This document shows, in pieces, positions 53,424 to 61,564 of a stretch of 64,000 bases of DNA. This stretch comes from Halobacteriovoraceae bacterium. GTDB lineage: Bacteria > Bdellovibrionota > Bacteriovoracia > Bacteriovoracales > Bacteriovoracaceae. The stretch covers positions 480,001-544,000 of the forward strand of contig CAVRCF010000001.1 in NCBI GenBank assembly GCA_963719505.1, read 5' to 3'. Position numbers and translations under genes: made by a program. Numbering within the stretch: the first letter of the stretch is position 1; every line of letters begins with the position of its first letter. The notes below the pieces were generated by a model. The model searched no databases. It was not told where the DNA came from and saw only the letters and a list, made by a program, of their open reading frames with translations.

Positions 53424-56120
53424 ATGGAGTCCTTAATTTCAGGTCTGCAGCATTTACGGAATATACCAGGTTTGAGAAAACTTATTCGCCTCTATTATAG
53501 AAAAGGCGAAGCTAAATTAATTAGTAAGCTGTCTTCAATAGAATCCATTGGTTCAATTTACCTGAAGTCCAATTTAAACTCAGCAAGCTTCGATTTCGGT
53601 TTAAGTGATCTAGACTTTGTTATCGTTGTAAAAAATAAAGAACAAGAAAAAGAAATTTCACATATTTTTTCTATCCTAAGCCGTCTCTATCCTTTTATTA
53701 AAGATTATGATTTGTTTACCCTTAATGAGTTAACTTTTTTGACTGAGTTTGGTACTACAAAGTTTTCTAATCATGATGAATGGAAGTTATGTTTTGGAGA
53801 GAAACTTGAGTTGCCCAACTATTATTATCACCCTTTTAAATTTTATTGTGATCAAATTGATGAACTCTATTTTCTCGTTCTTTGGTTATATGAAAACTTA
53901 AAGGTTAGAAAAAGCGGATATCGTAAGATTGCGATTATTCGAACTTTAAAGAAAATTTTCTCTGTCATAGAGTGGATAGAAAATCCAAAAAAGTTTTCTC
54001 GACCAATGAAACAGAAGTTCTCACAAGATGAGACCTTATTGCTTGAAAGTGTTTACAAATCTTCTTTCAAAGATAATTGGATTAATTATATTCAAGGTAT
54101 AAAATTCTTTGAAGAGTATAGTTCACTTATTCAAAGCTCTTTTATGGTTGGTGAAGACCTCTCCTTTCCCCGAGACTTCGAAAGATATTGTTTTTCTGAT
54201 CACATCTCTTCAAAAAAAGTTGTTCATATTAGCCAGGCTCTTTACGAGAATTTTTATCTGTGTGGATCAATCGACCCAAGTCTTTTAGAGCGGGTTTCAG
54301 ATAGGAACCCTTCTCATCCCTATGGTGCCCTTTTAGAACTTAGAGCACATGCACTTGCTATAAGTGGACTTCATTCAAGTTACAATTTTTCAAAAAGATC
54401 ATTGAAATTAGAGACCGTCGTCGCAGACGTTCACAAAATTAACTCCACTTTTAAGGAGCCAATAAAATTCCTTGGTTCTAGTAACTTAGTTTCTGTCCAT
54501 TGGGGTGAGTCAAAGCAAAGAGAGATTGCTGTTGCAGTGGCGAAGCATTTCCTCACAAAGCAAAAAGGGAACTTTAATCATATTCATGTGTCTTTGGGTG
54601 AGGACAAGCAATGCTTCTATGGAGTGGATGAAATCTGGATTGATTGTGATCCAGGGCAGGCATGGCATAAAGAAGCCTTATATAATTTTGCTTTCTATTT
54701 TTGCTTTGGAGCTAAAAAATATATCTTTTCTGATGCAGAGGTTTATTGTGAAAAGGAAACGTGGCTAGAATCAACATTTAACTCTCTTGATCATAAAGAC
54801 TTTGTTCACGGTTTTCGAAAAGTGGTCGACTCTGAAGATTCTACTTACAATGATTATTCATGGACCTATAAACAGACTAAACTTAGTGGTGGTAACTCAG
54901 CTCAGGGGCTTGTCTGGGGAGTCACGTCCAAGCTTCTTCAGAGAATTGGTGGTATTCCCGACTACTGTCCTGATGGGAGTAACGACTCCTTGTTTGTTGA
55001 GACAGTAACAGGAATTCCCATGGGCCTTTCGAGTAGTGCATCTTGGTACTACGGAGATTCCTTTTCAGTGGTAGAAGATGTCGAGTATGGATTTGCTGAT
55101 TTTGAAGTCATCCACGTCAATCATGGAAAACAGAGGCTTTACTCAAACAGAATGGAAGTTATGGGGATAGTTGGGAATTATCTTAGATCGTTATTTTCAA
55201 AAAACTCGATTGGTATATTTCAAAATGTTAATAAGACTAACAAGATTCCGCCCTTTGGTGATCTCTTTGAGTTATCTATAAATAAGACTTTGCCACTTCT
55301 CAATAACCTCAGAAAAGAAAATTTCATTAAAGACCCAGACCTACTTTTTTTGCGCTTTGGTGATGGATTGGAGTCAAATATTCGTTTCATTAACTGCCTT
55401 GGTGTTTGTGAACATTTAGACGGAGAAGATATTTTAAAAATAGGATCTTTCGTTAACGAAAAGAGTAAGATTGTTATTCACTATAAACTAAAAGATCTAA
55501 TTTTGACTGAACTTCGCGCTGTTCGTTTTATTTTTAACCCACTAGAGGAAAAAGAACAAAAGCTAACTGGCAAGGCTTTTATTGATTGGAAAGAAGAGCC
55601 ATTTTGTAACAACCTAGCACGAGTAAGTACTGAAGTACTCCCTTTCGAGTATTTAGTTCTTGGGCTTAAAGATATATCAGAGCTAAGCTTTGAATTTGAG
55701 TTAAACTACCTAAAACCAAATCAAGTCATTCATCTCCCACGTCCACAGGAGAGCTCTATTAGTATGGTTCACTCTTGGGATGAAGAAAGTGTAATGGATA
55801 ATATTATTCATAATTCAAAGGACGAATATATTGAAATGCCTGACTTTCTCGAGTCTGATCACTGGTATGCTTTAGAGATAGATTGCTCTAACGTCAAAGA
55901 CCAGTGCTACTCTGCAGGCTTTTATTTCGGAGCTGATCTAAAGTCAGTAACGCAACTTCGATACTTCTCAAATACAACTGATAAATATCAACGAATTCAA
56001 GTCTTACTGACAAAAGACTTAGGTCTTTTAAAGCTTGGTTTACACTTCGAAAAAGCTGGTGGCGGGGAATCCATTAGTATTAAGATTCTCAAAAGGTCTA
56101 ATTTAAGTTCCAGTCAATAG
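53424..56120 (+). CDS. Fusion of a Pol-beta-type nucleotidyltransferase-like domain and a GT-A-like glycosyltransferase domain
   Basis: N-terminal SIYLKS...GLSDLDFVIV; central WHKEALYN...YIFSDAEV...GLVWG...DGSND...IHVNHG; unassigned beta-rich C-terminus. Confidence 0.6.
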   Translation: MESLISGLQHLRNIPGLRKLIRLYYRKGEAKLISKLSSIESIGSIYLKSNLNSASFDFGLSDLDFVIVVKNKEQEKEISHIFSILSRLYPFIKDYDLFTLNELTFLTEFGTTKFSNHDEWKLCFGEKLELPNYYYHPFKFYCDQIDELYFLVLWLYENLKVRKSGYRKIAIIRTLKKIFSVIEWIENPKKFSRPMKQKFSQDETLLLESVYKSSFKDNWINYIQGIKFFEEYSSLIQSSFMVGEDLSFPRDFERYCFSDHISSKKVVHISQALYENFYLCGSIDPSLLERVSDRNPSHPYGALLELRAHALAISGLHSSYNFSKRSLKLETVVADVHKINSTFKEPIKFLGSSNLVSVHWGESKQREIAVAVAKHFLTKQKGNFNHIHVSLGEDKQCFYGVDEIWIDCDPGQAWHKEALYNFAFYFCFGAKKYIFSDAEVYCEKETWLESTFNSLDHKDFVHGFRKVVDSEDSTYNDYSWTYKQTKLSGGNSAQGLVWGVTSKLLQRIGGIPDYCPDGSNDSLFVETVTGIPMGLSSSASWYYGDSFSVVEDVEYGFADFEVIHVNHGKQRLYSNRMEVMGIVGNYLRSLFSKNSIGIFQNVNKTNKIPPFGDLFELSINKTLPLLNNLRKENFIKDPDLLFLRFGDGLESNIRFINCLGVCEHLDGEDILKIGSFVNEKSKIVIHYKLKDLILTELRAVRFIFNPLEEKEQKLTGKAFIDWKEEPFCNNLARVSTEVLPFEYLVLGLKDISELSFEFELNYLKPNQVIHLPRPQESSISMVHSWDEESVMDNIIHNSKDEYIEMPDFLESDHWYALEIDCSNVKDQCYSAGFYFGADLKSVTQLRYFSNTTDKYQRIQVLLTKDLGLLKLGLHFEKAGGGESISIKILKRSNLSSSQ

Positions 56121-57260: not shown

Positions 57261-58376
57261 TTATTGTAATTTTTTAGACTTCTTTGTTTTTTTCGCTGGA
57301 GCTGCTTCTACTTCTGATTCCTCAGCAATTTCGCCTGTCTCCATATTTACTGCTGCTACTGCATCTGGGTCAGTGGCTAAACCATGCTTCGCTAAAACTT
57401 TGATTCTAATCTCTTCCATGACCTGTGGGTTATCCATCAAGAATTTTTTAGAATTTTCACGACCTTGTCCAATTTTCTCATTATTGTATGAGTACCAAGC
57501 ACCAGCTTTTTCAACAATGTTCTCTTTAACAGCAAGATCAAGAAGATCACCCTCTTTAGAGATACCAGTTCCGTACATAATATCGAATTCAATTTCTCTA
57601 AATGGAGGTGCAACTTTATTTTTAACAACTTTTATTCTTGTTCTGTTTCCAGTGACATCATCACCTTCTTTGATGGCACCAATTCTTCTAATATCCATTC
57701 TTACAGAAGAGTAGAATTTAAGGGCATTTCCACCAGTTGTAGTTTCAGGGTTACCAAACATAACACCAATCTTCATTCTTAGTTGGTTAATAAAGATAAC
57801 TGTACAGTTTGATCTTGAGATTGAACCTGTTAGTTTTCTAAGGGCTTGTGACATAAGTCTTGCTTGAAGTCCCATGTGTGAATCACCCATGTCTCCTTCA
57901 AGTTCAGCTCTTGGAGTAAGTGCAGCAACTGAGTCGACAATGAGAAGATTAACTGCGCCAGATCTTACTAACATATCTGTAATTTCTAGTGCTTGCTCAC
58001 CACTGTCTGGTTGAGAAATTAGAGTATTTGGAATATCTACTCCAAGATTCGAAGCATAAGTAGTATCAAGAGCGTGCTCAGCATCTACAAAAGCTACTGT
58101 ACCACCAGCTTTCTGACATTCAGCAGCGATATGAAGTGTAAGAGTTGTTTTACCAGAAGACTCAGGTCCGTAGATTTCAACAATTCTTCCTTGAGGAATT
58201 CCACCGATACCAAGAGCAAGATCTATTCCTAGTGATCCAGTAGAAATGGCTGGCATTTTTTCTTAGGGCTCCCATCAAGTTTCATGATTGCACCTTTACC
58301 AAATTGCTTTTCAATTCCTGATAGTGCAAGGTCTAAAGCTTTCTTTTTGTTGTCGTCTGAAGTTGTGTTGTGCCAT
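57261..58376 (-). CDS. recA: Recombinase RecA; 5' region carries two compensating single-base indels
   Basis: [41 protein letters not shown] 58376 follows AGGGAG. The N-terminal [27 protein letters not shown] lies in a shifted frame between ~58370 and the A-run at 58256-58261. Confidence 0.95.
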
Positions 58377-58487
58377 GATTTTTTCTCCCTCAATTTATAA
58401 TTGTGTGATTTAAAGTTATCACTGTTGTTAGTTAGCCAAGCAATTTACGGATAAAGTACGGATGAGGTAAATACCCGAATTATTTGA

Positions 58488-58985
58488 TCAATTAAATAAA
58501 GGTAAGTAAATTTTGATCAGTACTACTGCTATACCTGCATAAAGACCACTTATGACATCATCAATTATCGTCCCAGAACCATGAAGAATTTTTTTATCAA
58601 AGTAGCTGGCCGGCCATATTTTTATGATATCAAAGGCCCTAAAGACTAAGAATACAAGACTCAAATCGAGAATATTTACGCTCGGAAAGACAAAGCACCA
58701 AGTTATTAGCATGCCGATAACCTCGTCAATGACAATCCAACCAGGGTCATGGATGTGATATTTTTTTTGAATAAAATCTGCGACAAAACACGCAAGTATT
58801 GTGAGGACGGCAATAAGCGAAATTAGTACGGATAATCCGAACTCACAGAGGAAGAATAAGTAAATGAAAGGAATTGTTGCAAGGCTTCCAGCTGTACCTG
58901 GGGCTTTGGGAGCATATCCACTTCCAAAAAATGTTAAAAATAAAAGAGAAGCCTTCTCTTTAAAAGGTTTATTTTGTTTTTTCAT
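58488..58985 (-). CDS. pgpA: Phosphatidylglycerophosphatase A
   Basis: PKAPGTAGSL, HDPGWIVIDEVIG, FRAFDIIK, IDDVISG. Confidence 0.93.
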   Translation of the reverse strand: MKKQNKPFKEKASLLFLTFFGSGYAPKAPGTAGSLATIPFIYLFFLCEFGLSVLISLIAVLTILACFVADFIQKKYHIHDPGWIVIDEVIGMLITWCFVFPSVNILDLSLVFLVFRAFDIIKIWPASYFDKKILHGSGTIIDDVISGLYAGIAVVLIKIYLPLFN

Positions 58986-59040: not shown

Positions 59041-60279
59041 ATGGACTTGAGTCAACTAACAAAAGACTTTCATTTTAATTGGGAATCCTTCGACATCATA
59101 GTGGGAGGTAAATCCTCTATCGATGCACAACGCTACCTTTCTCATTTTGATGGGAAAAAGTCTGCTGACAAGTTTTTGGCGGGTTACGGTTTTAATATTA
59201 CAGACCCCATTCAAGCAGCTGAACTCTTTGGTAATTTTCAAGAAGCTATTCAATTTATAAAACGCTATTTTTTAAAAGACGGTAATGACGAAGGTTTGAA
59301 TGTAAAAATTCCAAATGTTTTTTACTCCATTACAGATGTTTCAAAGCTGCTGCTTATTGCGACTCAAAAAATATCAGGGGAGACTTCTAAAGAGGAAGCT
59401 ATTTGGGCAAGTGTTATTTTAAAAGTGATGCACACGATTTTACATACTGATAAGGATCTTCGTTATCGCTATTTTACAACGATACAAACTCAAATTTTCG
59501 ATAGATTTTATCGTTTTTTACAAAGAGATGAAAACAACAAACTTTTTCTTGAGTCGGAGGACGGTGAATTCAAAATTCCCATCGTTGAGTTTGAGACAAA
59601 GTCCAAAAAAACAAGAGAAAGTACTATTATTAAGCTTCTCCATAAAAAAGAAAATGTCGCAGAGGAGCTATTCGATAGAATTGGGATAAGAATTGTCGCA
59701 AAAAATAAAATTGATGTTTTAAGGGTTATTGATTTTCTTGTACAAAACTATTTGATAATAGCTAATAATATCAAGCCTAGTCGTTCACAAAACACTCTTT
59801 TTGATATGGTAAAGTTAGAACAAAACTATGACGAATTTGTCGAAAAAAGATTGTCTCAGATTGATGAGTCAATGGTTGCCGAAGAATTAGAAGTCATTGC
59901 AAAAAACTCCCTTTTTAAACCAATAAAATCTCAAAACAATGAGCACTCATCAATTGACTATAGAGCAATTCATTTTACGTGCAGACAGCTGATTAAATAC
60001 AAGAGTCCTTTTGTAAAATCATTCAGCGATATAAAAGACCTGGCCAAAAAAGAAGACTCGGAGCTTGCTAAAAAAATTCTTAGTTTAGACACAAGCTTTG
60101 TCTCTCAAGATGTTAGATTTTTTTATCCTTACGAAGTTCAGATAACAGACCTAGAAAGCCATCAAGAGAATACTGTGGGTGAGGCTTCGCATTTAGAGTA
60201 CAAAAAATCTCAACTTCAATCAGCAATGAAGAGACTTTTCAAACCTCTTATTGACTTGAAAAAATTGGATGTTGATTAG
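59041..60279 (+). CDS. TIGR04552-type protein with RelA/SpoT-like synthetase motifs
   Basis: KTRESTIIKLLHK, FDRIGIRIV, YRAIHFT, YEVQITD, GEASHLEYK; about 410 aa. Family name assigned from recalled motifs, not from a search. Confidence 0.8.
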   Translation: MDLSQLTKDFHFNWESFDIIVGGKSSIDAQRYLSHFDGKKSADKFLAGYGFNITDPIQAAELFGNFQEAIQFIKRYFLKDGNDEGLNVKIPNVFYSITDVSKLLLIATQKISGETSKEEAIWASVILKVMHTILHTDKDLRYRYFTTIQTQIFDRFYRFLQRDENNKLFLESEDGEFKIPIVEFETKSKKTRESTIIKLLHKKENVAEELFDRIGIRIVAKNKIDVLRVIDFLVQNYLIIANNIKPSRSQNTLFDMVKLEQNYDEFVEKRLSQIDESMVAEELEVIAKNSLFKPIKSQNNEHSSIDYRAIHFTCRQLIKYKSPFVKSFSDIKDLAKKEDSELAKKILSLDTSFVSQDVRFFYPYEVQITDLESHQENTVGEASHLEYKKSQLQSAMKRLFKPLIDLKKLDVD

Positions 60280-61157
60280 GATTCAATAAATTCTATCATT
60301 CTTTCGTTCACAAACTTGGGAAAATCAACTTGAGGAACATGACTCCCATTTTTAACAAGGTAGAGTTCAGCGTTCGGTAGTGAGTCAGCTAGAAGTCTTT
60401 GAAGGTAATTGGGAATGACCTTGTCTTTGTCGCCACCAATAACAAGTGTTTTCGTTTTAATAATTTCGACCTCACCTAATATTTGATGGATTTGCATCTG
60501 ATCGAGAAGTTGAAAAAAAAGCTCGGGTCCAAGTTGACCTAATTTATTAAGGTAGACCTCTATAAATTCACTGGGAACAGTTTTGATATTAAAACCCCCA
60601 GCGTGGATAAGCTTCTTAATGATAGGGTTCCAGCCACCAAACTTCCAAAAGGTTTTAAAAGCGGCGGGGTAGGCTTTTAAAAGTTTTTTTATATAGGGTT
60701 GGACTTGGTCTACAACATTACTGTCGAACATGATGTCGTAAACAGGTATTGTCGTTCCCGATATGAGAATCTGCTTTGACGCTACATCTGGAAAGCGTTT
60801 ATTAAACTCAAGACTAATATTTACTCCCATACTGTGCCCAATTAAAATAGGATTTTTTATCTTTAAATGGTTGATGAGTCCGTAAAGATCATTTGTCATG
60901 TTCTCAAAGGTAATCGAATCAAGATCCTCGATGCCACTTGACTGATAATGTCCCCGATAGTCATGAACTAAGATTCTGTAACCTTTTTCATCAAAGTAGT
61001 CTAGCTGATGAACCCAGTGGTGGTTGCTGCAGACAAGACCGTAATTGAAAATAAGAATTCCCTCGTTGGATTCATGTTCGAACGGATCGAAGTTTGTTTG
61101 AAAAAATATCTGTTGGTTATCAAGGGTTTTAAAATAGTTTGTATAGAGGTTATTCAT
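60276..61157 (-). CDS. Alpha/beta fold hydrolase
   Basis: DYRGHYQS, GHSMG nucleophile elbow, GDKDKV, GSH. Confidence 0.9.
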   Translation of the reverse strand: MNNLYTNYFKTLDNQQIFFQTNFDPFEHESNEGILIFNYGLVCSNHHWVHQLDYFDEKGYRILVHDYRGHYQSSGIEDLDSITFENMTNDLYGLINHLKIKNPILIGHSMGVNISLEFNKRFPDVASKQILISGTTIPVYDIMFDSNVVDQVQPYIKKLLKAYPAAFKTFWKFGGWNPIIKKLIHAGGFNIKTVPSEFIEVYLNKLGQLGPELFFQLLDQMQIHQILGEVEIIKTKTLVIGGDKDKVIPNYLQRLLADSLPNAELYLVKNGSHVPQVDFPKFVNERMIEFIES

Positions 61158-61564
61158 TCTTTACTCTTTTGAATGTCCTTTAGGACACCGACTAGTTCTG
61201 GGGCTTCTTTTAAAATCTTCTCTGTTGCTGTGTTGAGCTTTTCTCTGTAAGACTCGCTAATAGTCTGTACTGCACTTGTGACAGAAAGACTGCAGCTGCC
61301 AACACTTATTTTATCTCCAATTTTTATCTCTTTAAAACCTGTTGTTCTTTTACCGTTAATAAGAATGAATTTTGTCTTTTTACTTAAGTGGCATAAAATT
61401 TTAGACTCAACAATTTCAATGAAGAAATGATTTAAATTGAGAAGTGGGTCATCGAGATAGAGGTCCGAGCCAGTATCCCTACCAAAGTAAATAAGATTTT
61501 TGTTAAAGGTGTATATACCCTTTTTATCTAGTTCTTCTGATTGTTCTACGTTGATGCTTATCAT
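61154..61564 (-). CDS. FHA-like domain protein
   Basis: IYFGR...DLYLDD...H...ILING...IGDKISVG pattern. Confidence 0.7.
   Translation of the reverse strand: MISINVEQSEELDKKGIYTFNKNLIYFGRDTGSDLYLDDPLLNLNHFFIEIVESKILCHLSKKTKFILINGKRTTGFKEIKIGDKISVGSCSLSVTSAVQTISESYREKLNTATEKILKEAPELVGVLKDIQKSKE

Follow-up and report, generated by a model that had tools for sequence, protein, structure and literature searches.

A stand-alone, deeply divergent RelA/SpoT-fold protein of Bdellovibrionota with a conserved donor site, a probably altered acceptor site and recurrent glycerophospholipid-gene neighbours

Introduction

RelA/SpoT homologue (RSH) proteins are central bacterial stress-signalling enzymes, and each new subfamily, e.g., the (p)ppApp makers, the tRNA pyrophosphokinases and the small alarmone synthetases with a TPR domain (SAS-TPR), has widened the known roles of the fold. 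In SaRelP, adenine stacking falls to R78 and R112 and phosphate binding to K80, K88 and R91, with S84 at the alpha-phosphate; Mg2+ is coordinated by D107 and E174, the ribose is bound by H190 and the guanine is stacked by Y151 of the G-loop; in RelSeq the equivalent Mg2+ carboxylates are D264 and E323, and the acceptor is stacked by Y308 (PMC5794853, PMC7983052). DsRel/SAS-TPR, known from Treponema denticola (Tde-SAS) and also reported from deltaproteobacteria, combines an N-terminal SAS with a C-terminal TPR (PMC10434055). Here we describe an RSH-like gene in a stretch of 64,000 nucleotides (the whole stretch is called the window below) from a Halobacteriovoraceae bacterium of the Bdellovibrionota (GenBank assembly GCA_963719505.1, contig CAVRCF010000001.1, positions 480,001 to 544,000). 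The gene is a complete open reading frame (59041..60279, + strand) with an ATG start and encodes 412 amino acids (aa); a preliminary description, made from the sequence alone, had seen in it a stand-alone RelA/SpoT-like synthetase. We lean, by a modest degree, towards reading it as a soluble, catalytically competent, deeply divergent RSH synthetase (NCBIfam TIGR04552/TIGR04562), which is possibly coupled to membrane-lipid homeostasis.

Results

Structure and active site

An alignment of 89 diverse homologues (A1; 26-56% identical to the RSH-like protein) was the basis of the structural model, the profile and all conservation counts. The AlphaFold2 model reached a mean predicted local distance difference test score (pLDDT) of 93.3 and a predicted template-modelling score (pTM) of 0.89. 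When it was compared with the PDB by Foldseek, 7 of 7 matches at E<=0.001 were RelP chains, followed by RelQ, RelSeq and other Rel/SAS chains. An independent structural search against 48,161 chains with VIA-align placed RSH proteins in all of the top ten positions (in the order 6yxa, 6fgk, 8acu, 7qps, 6ewz, 5dec, 5l3p, 8vx3, 7ztb and 7qpr; Z 10.1 to 6.5, 127-167 aligned residues, 6-20% identity). The best match was the Rel of B. subtilis (6yxa, Z 10.1, 132 residues, 19% identity), RelP (6fgk) scored Z 9.8, RelQ (5dec) 8.4, the toxin CapRel (7ztb) 6.6 and 6ox6 5.3, and the first entry outside the RSH proteins was TdT (Z 6.1). Across the classical synthetases (Rel, RelP, RelQ, SpoT and RelA), the Z-scores ranged from 8.3 to 10.1. 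The superposition on RelP and RelQ that the preliminary description had recommended thus finds the RSH fold, the top VIA-align matches and the significant Foldseek matches being RSH proteins throughout.

The fold core is preceded by a family-specific helical domain with the conserved residues S25, D28, Y49, G50, P91, W122, H131 and H135 (Table 1). As the structural alignments with RSH proteins begin at aa 125-139, the N-terminal extension comprises about 125-135 aa, and the earlier figure of about 180 aa was too high. No fold could be assigned to this domain: its 142 N-terminal residues, folded alone (pLDDT 77.9), matched helical bundles only (RbcX, Z 7.1), and this match, like that with the HD protein OxsA (Z 3.6), is within the noise for helical proteins and gives no evidence of a new fold. 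The insertions between the motifs, already noted from the sequence, are evident from the spacing: D212 and Y307 lie 95 aa apart compared to 44 in SaRelP, and Y307 and E365 58 aa apart compared to 23. Conserved residues in or beside the inserts that flank the G-loop include N243, P246, R248, S303, T313 and R315.

The five Syn-type motifs listed in the preliminary description are all in place and follow one another in the order of RSH proteins: K190-x2-E193-S194-x-I196-x-K198, D212-R-I-G215-I-R217-I, Y307-R-A-I-H311, E365-V-Q367-I-T-D370 (i.e., EVQITD in place of EIQIRT, as described there) and G380-x-A-x-H384-x2-Y387-K388. Searched against the sequences of the PDB, the A1 profile aligned Syn1 and Syn2 with B. 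subtilis RelP (E 8.4e-5), and Syn1-Syn2 as well as Syn4-Syn5 with RelSeq and M. tuberculosis Rel; Syn3 (eYrsiqft vs GYRSLHLI) was aligned in a below-threshold stretch only. The residues were mapped to SaRelP (numbering of PMC5794853) by motif spacing and not by superposition, with K190 corresponding to K80, S194 to S84, K198 to K88, D212 to D107, R217 to R112, Y307 to Y151, E365 to E174 and H384 to H190.

These SaRelP-equivalent positions are conserved in 78-89 of the 89 homologues. Both Mg2+ carboxylates, D212 and E365, are present in 89/89, and the phosphate-binding K..S..K set is kept (K190 and K198 in 89/89, S194 in 84/89). Also invariant are G215, N251, N300, Q367 and Y387. Position 187 is always basic (K in 84, R in 5), R217 is found in 83 homologues (K in a further 4), H384 in 82 and K388 in 80 (R in 8), and position 307 is nearly always aromatic (Y 78, F 7, W 2, H 2). 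Other positions depart from the classical pattern. The adenine sandwich of two arginines is incomplete: R217 is conserved, and the column equivalent to R78 (188) is variable (S188 here; E 20, P 18, R 12 and H 6 of 89), with the basic K187 adjoining it. The equivalent of R91 is H201 (64/89), followed by K202. The Syn4 pattern E-x-Q-x-R-T is not kept in full, T369-D370 standing here in place of RT; in the family, position 369 is L, M, T or V and D370 is found in 85/89. Position 311 is Q in 70/89 and H in 10/89, this protein (H311) belonging to the minority.

Together with the RSH fold, the family has thus kept the residues that in RelP and RelSeq contact the ATP phosphates, coordinate Mg2+ and stack the acceptor base. 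In our reading of the alignment, strong purifying selection would be acting on the donor and Mg2+ machinery, as it does in functional enzymes, and the acceptor side would have been rebuilt.

Family membership, distribution and inheritance

The protein matches two NCBIfam models over their full length, TIGR04562 with 409.7 bits (cut-off 140; aa 13-401 on profile positions 1-356 of 356) and TIGR04552 with 392.4 bits (cut-off 125; aa 11-401 on positions 2-352 of 352), which share one model name, "TIGR04552 family protein". PF04607 (RelA_SpoT) passes marginally (30.7 bits, cut-off 27), its positions 4-111 of 113 being stretched over aa 190-390 because of the insertions between the motifs; in a genome-wide six-frame scan it recovered the gene in two pieces of 21.6 and 16.4 bits, both under the cut-off. 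The two comparisons with profile hidden Markov models proposed earlier therefore place the protein in TIGR04552 and, by a narrow margin, in PF04607. No HD, TGS, ACT, TPR or other Pfam domain besides PF04607 was found at E<=10, which agrees with the stand-alone architecture originally described; the long-RSH model TIGR00691 gave 26.1 bits against a cut-off of 499.2, and a Kyte-Doolittle scan revealed no hydrophobic segment. The divergence is considerable: a single-sequence search of the PDB sequences returned the thermosome alone (E 0.071), RSH matches requiring a profile search. The same genome (3.69 Mb in 5 contigs, completeness 83.5%) also encodes a canonical long Rel (HD_4, RelA_SpoT, TGS, AH/RIS and ACT), with which the family profile was aligned by hhalign at Syn4-Syn5 only (33 columns, probability 10.7%).

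The TIGR04552 model matches 173 of the 201 sampled genomes of the phylum (171 above the cut-off), 150 of the 166 of high quality and none of 14 control genomes, almost always once per genome. No match was obtained in the genomes sampled from five taxonomic families (families are denoted by f-numbers: f2, 0/9; f6, 0/9; f15, 0/3; f4, 0/1; f11, 0/1), the listed genomes of which are small (1.3-2.1 Mb). A database-wide search gave 1143 proteins at E<=1e-3 (90% clusters), with 526 representatives at 50% identity. Among the best 80 of at least 585 confirmed related loci, most are labelled Bacteriovoracaceae or other Bdellovibrionota and a few Proteobacteria, Flavobacteriaceae or plain "bacterium"; the close relatives bear the names Bacteriovoracaceae, Halobacteriovoraceae, Peredibacter and Bacteriovorax. 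Beyond the phylum, homologues carry the source labels Myxococcota, Armatimonadetes, Vulcanimicrobiota, Melainabacteria and Kiloniella laminariae, and in one Atlas protein cluster the commonest phylum is Acidobacteriota. With homologues under such labels, the tie to the predatory life cycle that had been suggested is not supported.

A quick maximum-likelihood tree (IQ-TREE) of 41 sequences from 19 taxonomic families showed five well-supported clades and followed taxonomy: 18 label changes, the minimum possible for 19 families, were counted, compared to a mean of 32.5 after shuffling (0 of 200 shuffles were as low). The near-universal single copy and the agreement of the tree with taxonomy indicate an old, vertically inherited gene and not a mobile toxin, in line with the housekeeping-like character attributed to it at the outset.

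A literature search gave no functional study of TIGR04552/TIGR04562, nor of RSH enzymes in Bdellovibrio, among the titles and opening lines of abstracts, which accords with the earlier statement that the family has no assigned function. Two RSH surveys leave the family unnamed or unlisted in their supplementary table and sequence file, respectively: the table of Atkinson 2011 gives Rel only for B. bacteriovorus and, for M. xanthus, an unclassified "SYNTH" entry beside Rel and pbcSpo, and the sequence file of Jimmy 2020 (PMC7229694) gives Rel only for Bdellovibrio and Halobacteriovorax (other listing there is possible). Two members, assigned to TIGR04552 by the papers' own annotation, have been encountered in genetic work. 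In an evolution study of Bdellovibrio sp. NC01, a small indel in DOE51_RS08710 was among the high-frequency mutations of one population; in a transposon-sequencing preprint on M. xanthus, insertions in MXAN_4858, located near the G1 gliding-gene cluster, behave like mutants of the gliding machinery in developmental aggregation. The high frequency of the indel means that the NC01 gene is dispensable under those conditions. Possibly the "SYNTH" entry of M. xanthus is MXAN_4858, a guess from the order of accessions.

Gene neighbourhood

In the window, the RSH-like gene lies between a divergent pgpA, beyond which recX and ung follow upstream, and a convergent alpha/beta-hydrolase gene, beyond which lie genes for an FHA protein, recG and greA (Table 1). 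The arrangement is stable among the Bacteriovoracaceae: of the 73 loci with upstream sequence, 72 have pgpA in opposite orientation at a distance of up to 300 nt, and of the 76 with downstream sequence, 72 have the hydrolase gene downstream, likewise in opposite orientation.

The wider comparison covered 41 loci (the window and 40 others) from 19 families, with two genes on either side; these loci are related by kinship and not independent. The neighbourhood varies with the five clades of the gene tree. In clade 1 (f1, f13, f14, f17, f18, f20, f22, f24, f26 and f28), pgpA is divergent upstream in 11 of the 41 loci and 7 of the 19 families (f1, f13, f14, f18, f20, f22 and f28). A protein of about 390-430 aa is often encoded downstream in this clade, homologous in 8 loci of 6 families (f13, f14, f17, f18, f20 and f28); it is oxidoreductase-like, with a Rossmann-like GxGxxP N-terminus recognised by eye and no family match, and behind its gene, often with overlapping frames, follows that of a protein of about 640-680 aa with 4Fe-4S and 2Fe-2S domains. 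Another clade comprises f8, f25, f12, f21 and f27. A PlsC-type acyltransferase gene stands directly downstream and co-directional in 6/6 loci of f8 and f25 (in L123 accompanied by an APP1-type phosphatidate phosphatase two genes upstream), and thiolase, FadB or 3-hydroxyacyl-CoA dehydrogenase occurs within two genes in 4/5 loci of f12, f21 and f27. Directly upstream, a co-directional gene for a protein of about 200-260 aa, of unknown family and with a lipoprotein-type signal by eye in the three members inspected, is present in 9 of these 11 loci. In f5 and f19 (L021, L035 and L118-L121), two genes come after the RSH-like gene in 6/6 loci, the first for a GYF_2-domain protein that has a single membrane segment and the second for a PlsB-like glycerol-3-phosphate acyltransferase, the latter recognised five times by Pfam and the sixth time by a PF01553 match. 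The GYF_2 neighbour was considered as a candidate GltJ and rejected, since it matches the GltJ model via its GYF domain only (19.8 and 36.1 bits, cut-off 450). In f3 and f10, pseudouridine synthase, tRNA U5-methyltransferase-like and MiaB/RimO-like genes are neighbours (3/3 loci each). In the three loci of f10 (L023, L125 and L126), the genes follow one another closely in one direction, their frames overlapping or abutting, in the order RluB-like pseudouridine synthase, RSH-like gene, MiaB/RimO-like radical-SAM methylthiotransferase and DUF502 protein.

A glycerophospholipid gene, different in each clade, is thus found within two genes of the RSH-like gene in 3 of the 5 clades (23/41 loci, 11/19 families). 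Since the five genomes that were checked contain 4-7 PF01553 genes and one pgpA each, we estimate that such a neighbour would occur by chance at about 1%, an estimate and not a computed control. The plsC-like and plsB-like associations are two independent re-associations and make the lipid signal worth testing.

As the preliminary description had it, no antitoxin-like neighbour is evident: in the window both neighbours are divergent or convergent, no small partner gene is shared across the 41 loci, and PADLOC gave no match. At other loci, the co-directional neighbours change from clade to clade and encode enzymes or a lipoprotein, none of them antitoxin-like. Single-protein queries with the operon partners of other families (the oxidoreductase-like protein of about 390 aa, the Fe-S protein of about 650 aa and the lipoprotein of about 200 aa) gave no match in the window genome as assembled, which is 83.5% complete.

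Several other features of the window were recorded. Between the hydrolase gene and recG lies a gene for a small FHA-domain protein (136 aa; 61154-61564, - strand), and an FHA-domain match occupies the same place in many Bacteriovoracaceae loci. An open reading frame of 898 aa (53424-56120, + strand) has no Pfam, NCBIfam or PADLOC match, and of 80 Bacteriovoracaceae loci, 8 contain a homologue at a distance of 8-9.4 kb upstream from the RSH-like gene; in many of the loci the available upstream sequence is shorter. The recA gene is read in three pieces: the main open reading frame (331 aa) spans 57261-58256, and the 5' end (58257-58400, - strand) is in other frames, the N-terminus (MAQHN...) and one further segment being out of frame, while the relative L031 reads through. 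The two shifts of frame compensate each other and are located near A-rich stretches, which points to homopolymer errors in the assembly; such errors might also account for the completeness estimate of 83.5%.

Table 1. Coordinates of the RSH-like protein's domains and motifs, of the adjoining genes in the window and of recurrent neighbours at related loci (L-numbers).
Feature	Coordinates	Strand	Remarks
RSH synthetase-fold core	59455..60210	+	aa ~139-390; VIA-align, Foldseek
Family-specific N-terminal helical domain	59041..59445	+	aa 1-135; model and conservation
Syn1-like ATP-phosphate motif K187..K190..S194..K198..H201-K202	59599..59646	+	aligned to BsRelP RVKSFESIVNKLMRK
Syn2-like D212-x2-G215-x-R217 (putative Mg2+ carboxylate, adenine-stacking Arg)	59674..59691	+	conservation; roles from PMC5794853, PMC7983052
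Family-specific insert 1	59746..59940	+	aa ~236-300; conserved N243, P246, R248, invariant N251
G-loop/Syn3-like N300..S303..Y307-R308..H311..T313..R315	59938..59985	+	conservation in A1
Family-specific insert 2	60004..60108	+	aa ~322-356; two helices in model
Syn4-like P363-x-E365-x-Q367-x-T369-D370 (putative second Mg2+ carboxylate)	60127..60150	+	aligned to RelSeq PIEIQIRT
Syn5-like G380..H384..Y387-K388..Q391	60178..60213	+	aligned to RelSeq GVAAHWAYKK
pgpA (phosphatidylglycerophosphatase A)	58488..58985	-	PF04608, 128.2 bits; divergent, 55 bp upstream of the RSH-like gene
alpha/beta-hydrolase gene	60276..61157	-	convergent; 3' ends overlap the RSH-like gene by 4 bp
Two-gene oxidoreductase-like/Fe-S module	L019:7175-10479, L020:2910-5988, L025:7231-10370, L029:2863-5993, L130, L131, L133, L135		directly downstream of the RSH-like gene
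~200-260-aa predicted lipoprotein gene	L016:7143-7802, L017:5283-5912, L024, L028, L122-L124, L127, L128		families f8, f12, f21, f25

Discussion

Almost every genome sampled from one phylum carries a member of the family, which also occurs under source names of several other phyla, and its catalytic residues are conserved as in a functional enzyme. Judged from these residues, the RSH-like protein is probably an active pyrophosphokinase. ATP-Mg2+ would be bound through Syn1, Syn2 and Syn4, and a nucleotide-type acceptor, the base of which is stacked on Tyr307, would receive the beta,gamma-pyrophosphate of ATP on its 3'-OH. By default this acceptor would be a purine nucleotide, yielding a (p)ppGpp- or (p)ppApp-like signal; the pocket, however, would be rebuilt by the N-terminal helical domain, the two inserts (with N251 and N300, both invariant) and the substitution of (L/M/T)D for RT, so that the product may be (p)ppGpp/(p)ppApp-like or something else. 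A purine-nucleotide alarmone is accordingly a product that we consider plausible, just short of favouring it, and the "nucleotide signalling" of the preliminary description is something that we still infer, because the acceptor pocket appears to be rebuilt.

The gene neighbourhoods suggest that the output is coupled to glycerophospholipid or membrane homeostasis. SpoT senses fatty-acid starvation through the acyl carrier protein (ACP). In E. coli, ppGpp is reported to regulate phospholipid synthesis (PMC7439487). That the association reflects a real functional link to phospholipid metabolism seems to us conceivable, with somewhat more doubt than conviction, and the repeated independent adjacency to three glycerophospholipid genes offers a concrete hypothesis on product and role. 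The boldest version, in which TIGR04552/TIGR04562 would be a new functional class of RSH proteins that retain the ATP-Mg2+ donor machinery and, through their rebuilt acceptor pocket, yield a product other than (p)ppGpp (a new signal or a pyrophosphorylated nucleotide of the lipid pathway), coupling the synthesis or turnover of membrane phospholipids (PgpA, PlsC-like, PlsB-like) to the state of the cell in Bdellovibrionota and Myxococcota, we regard as unlikely.

Several observations weigh against the reading as a divergent, lipid-coupled synthetase. On the side of the protein, the Pfam RelA_SpoT score is marginal, the family profile can barely be aligned with the Rel of its own genome, and the first stacking Arg is lost, R91 is replaced by H201 and RT of EIQIRT by other residues; these departures mean that the binding of both donor and acceptor may differ from that in classical RSH enzymes. 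On the side of the genes, the adjacency of pgpA could be inherited synteny of the recA/pgpA/cinA region, pgpA in the window is divergent and not co-transcribed, and the neighbourhood is not uniform, RNA-modification genes being found in f3 and f10 and the oxidoreductase-like/Fe-S genes in eight loci of six families. Finally, the indel in the homologue of Bdellovibrio sp. NC01 means that the gene is dispensable under the conditions of that evolution study.

An alternative is an ordinary small alarmone synthetase, a source of (p)ppGpp redundant with Rel, next to which the lipid genes would be meaningless inherited synteny. In its favour, the family has kept the catalytic set together with the aromatic residue for acceptor stacking, this protein retains Y-x3-H in its classical form (H311), (p)ppGpp synthetases head the list of structural matches, and the pgpA adjacency is limited to one large clade, as synteny would have it. 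Such an enzyme would not be expected, however, to carry Q at position 311 in 70/89 homologues, (L/M/T)D for RT and two conserved inserts with invariant N251/N300 flanking the G-loop, nor would its gene be expected to adjoin plsC-like and plsB-like genes independently in two other clades, and we think it improbable that nothing more is involved. The rebuilt pocket, combined with a retained donor-phosphate and Mg2+ site, could instead belong to a metabolic enzyme that adds pyrophosphate to a non-classical acceptor, or modifies it in another way, the acceptor being a nucleotide-linked cofactor or lipid precursor with a free ribose 3'-OH, e.g., CDP-diacylglycerol or dephospho-CoA, for which three glycerophospholipid genes and fatty-acid oxidation genes in separate clades would be fitting neighbours. 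We know of no RSH enzyme that uses an acceptor of this type, the protein has no membrane segment, the retained aromatic stacking residue fits any base, and the proposal is one of inference only; it appears quite improbable.

An activity directed at tRNA is a minority view that we hold to be about as improbable as the modification of a non-classical acceptor: CapRel (7ztb) matches the model with 167 aligned residues between aa 25 and 390 (Z 6.6), and RNA-modification genes are neighbours in f3 and f10 (3/3 loci each), in f10 with overlapping or abutting frames, but the classical synthetases outscore CapRel (Z 8.3-10.1), there is neither an antitoxin-like partner nor a PADLOC match, and RNA-modification neighbours occur in 2 of the 5 clades only. 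A toxSAS is likewise unlikely because of the lack of a conserved partner and of a PADLOC match and because of the vertical inheritance; we take it to be a single-copy gene of the chromosome, acting alongside a canonical long Rel and outside any toxin-antitoxin or defence module. Least probable of all, and in our view barely credible, is a pseudoenzyme, i.e., a nucleotide-binding regulator or scaffold without transfer activity. The loss of one adenine-stacking Arg, the replacement of RT and the marginal similarity to active RSH enzymes would agree with it, but D212, E365, Q367, K190 and K198 are invariant in 89/89 sequences in spite of an identity to this protein of only 26-56%, as one would expect if the active site is functional.

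Among the known systems, the toxSAS toxins (CapRel, FaRel2, PhRel and Tas1) have the RSH fold in common with the divergent synthetase that we favour (7ztb, Z 6.6; 6ox6, Z 5.3), but unlike them it shows no conserved bicistronic antitoxin, no match in the defence library and a single, vertically inherited copy. It resembles DsRel/SAS-TPR of T. denticola, as far as that subfamily is outlined in PMC10434055, in its size (about 410 aa), its two-domain structure and its long-uncharacterised status; the architecture is opposite, since the catalytic core of the RSH-like protein is C-terminal and Pfam detects no TPR. The synthetase domain of the long Rel/RelA/SpoT enzymes (6yxa, 8acu, 7qps, 5l3p and 1vj7) provides the best structural match (6yxa, Z 10.1), and Syn4 and Syn5 align to RelSeq, although HD, TGS, AH/RIS and ACT are all missing from the RSH-like protein. 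With RelP and RelQ of Firmicutes (6ewz, 6fgk and 5dec) it shares the synthetase fold (Z 8.4-9.8, 151-164 aligned residues, 18-20% identity), the Mg2+ carboxylates, the phosphate-binding Lys and Ser, the second adenine-stacking Arg, the aromatic residue of the G-loop, the ribose-binding His and the stand-alone form without HD, TGS or ACT. Unlike RelP and RelQ, it has about double their size, since a helical domain of some 130 aa is added at the N-terminus and the G-loop is flanked by inserts of roughly 50 and 35 aa; it also lacks the first stacking Arg and has TD for RT. The family is therefore not categorically new but an overlooked variant of a catalogued RSH family; what is new is the structural confirmation of the RSH fold, the combination of a conserved donor site with an altered acceptor site, the phylum-wide vertical inheritance and the recurrent association with glycerophospholipid genes.

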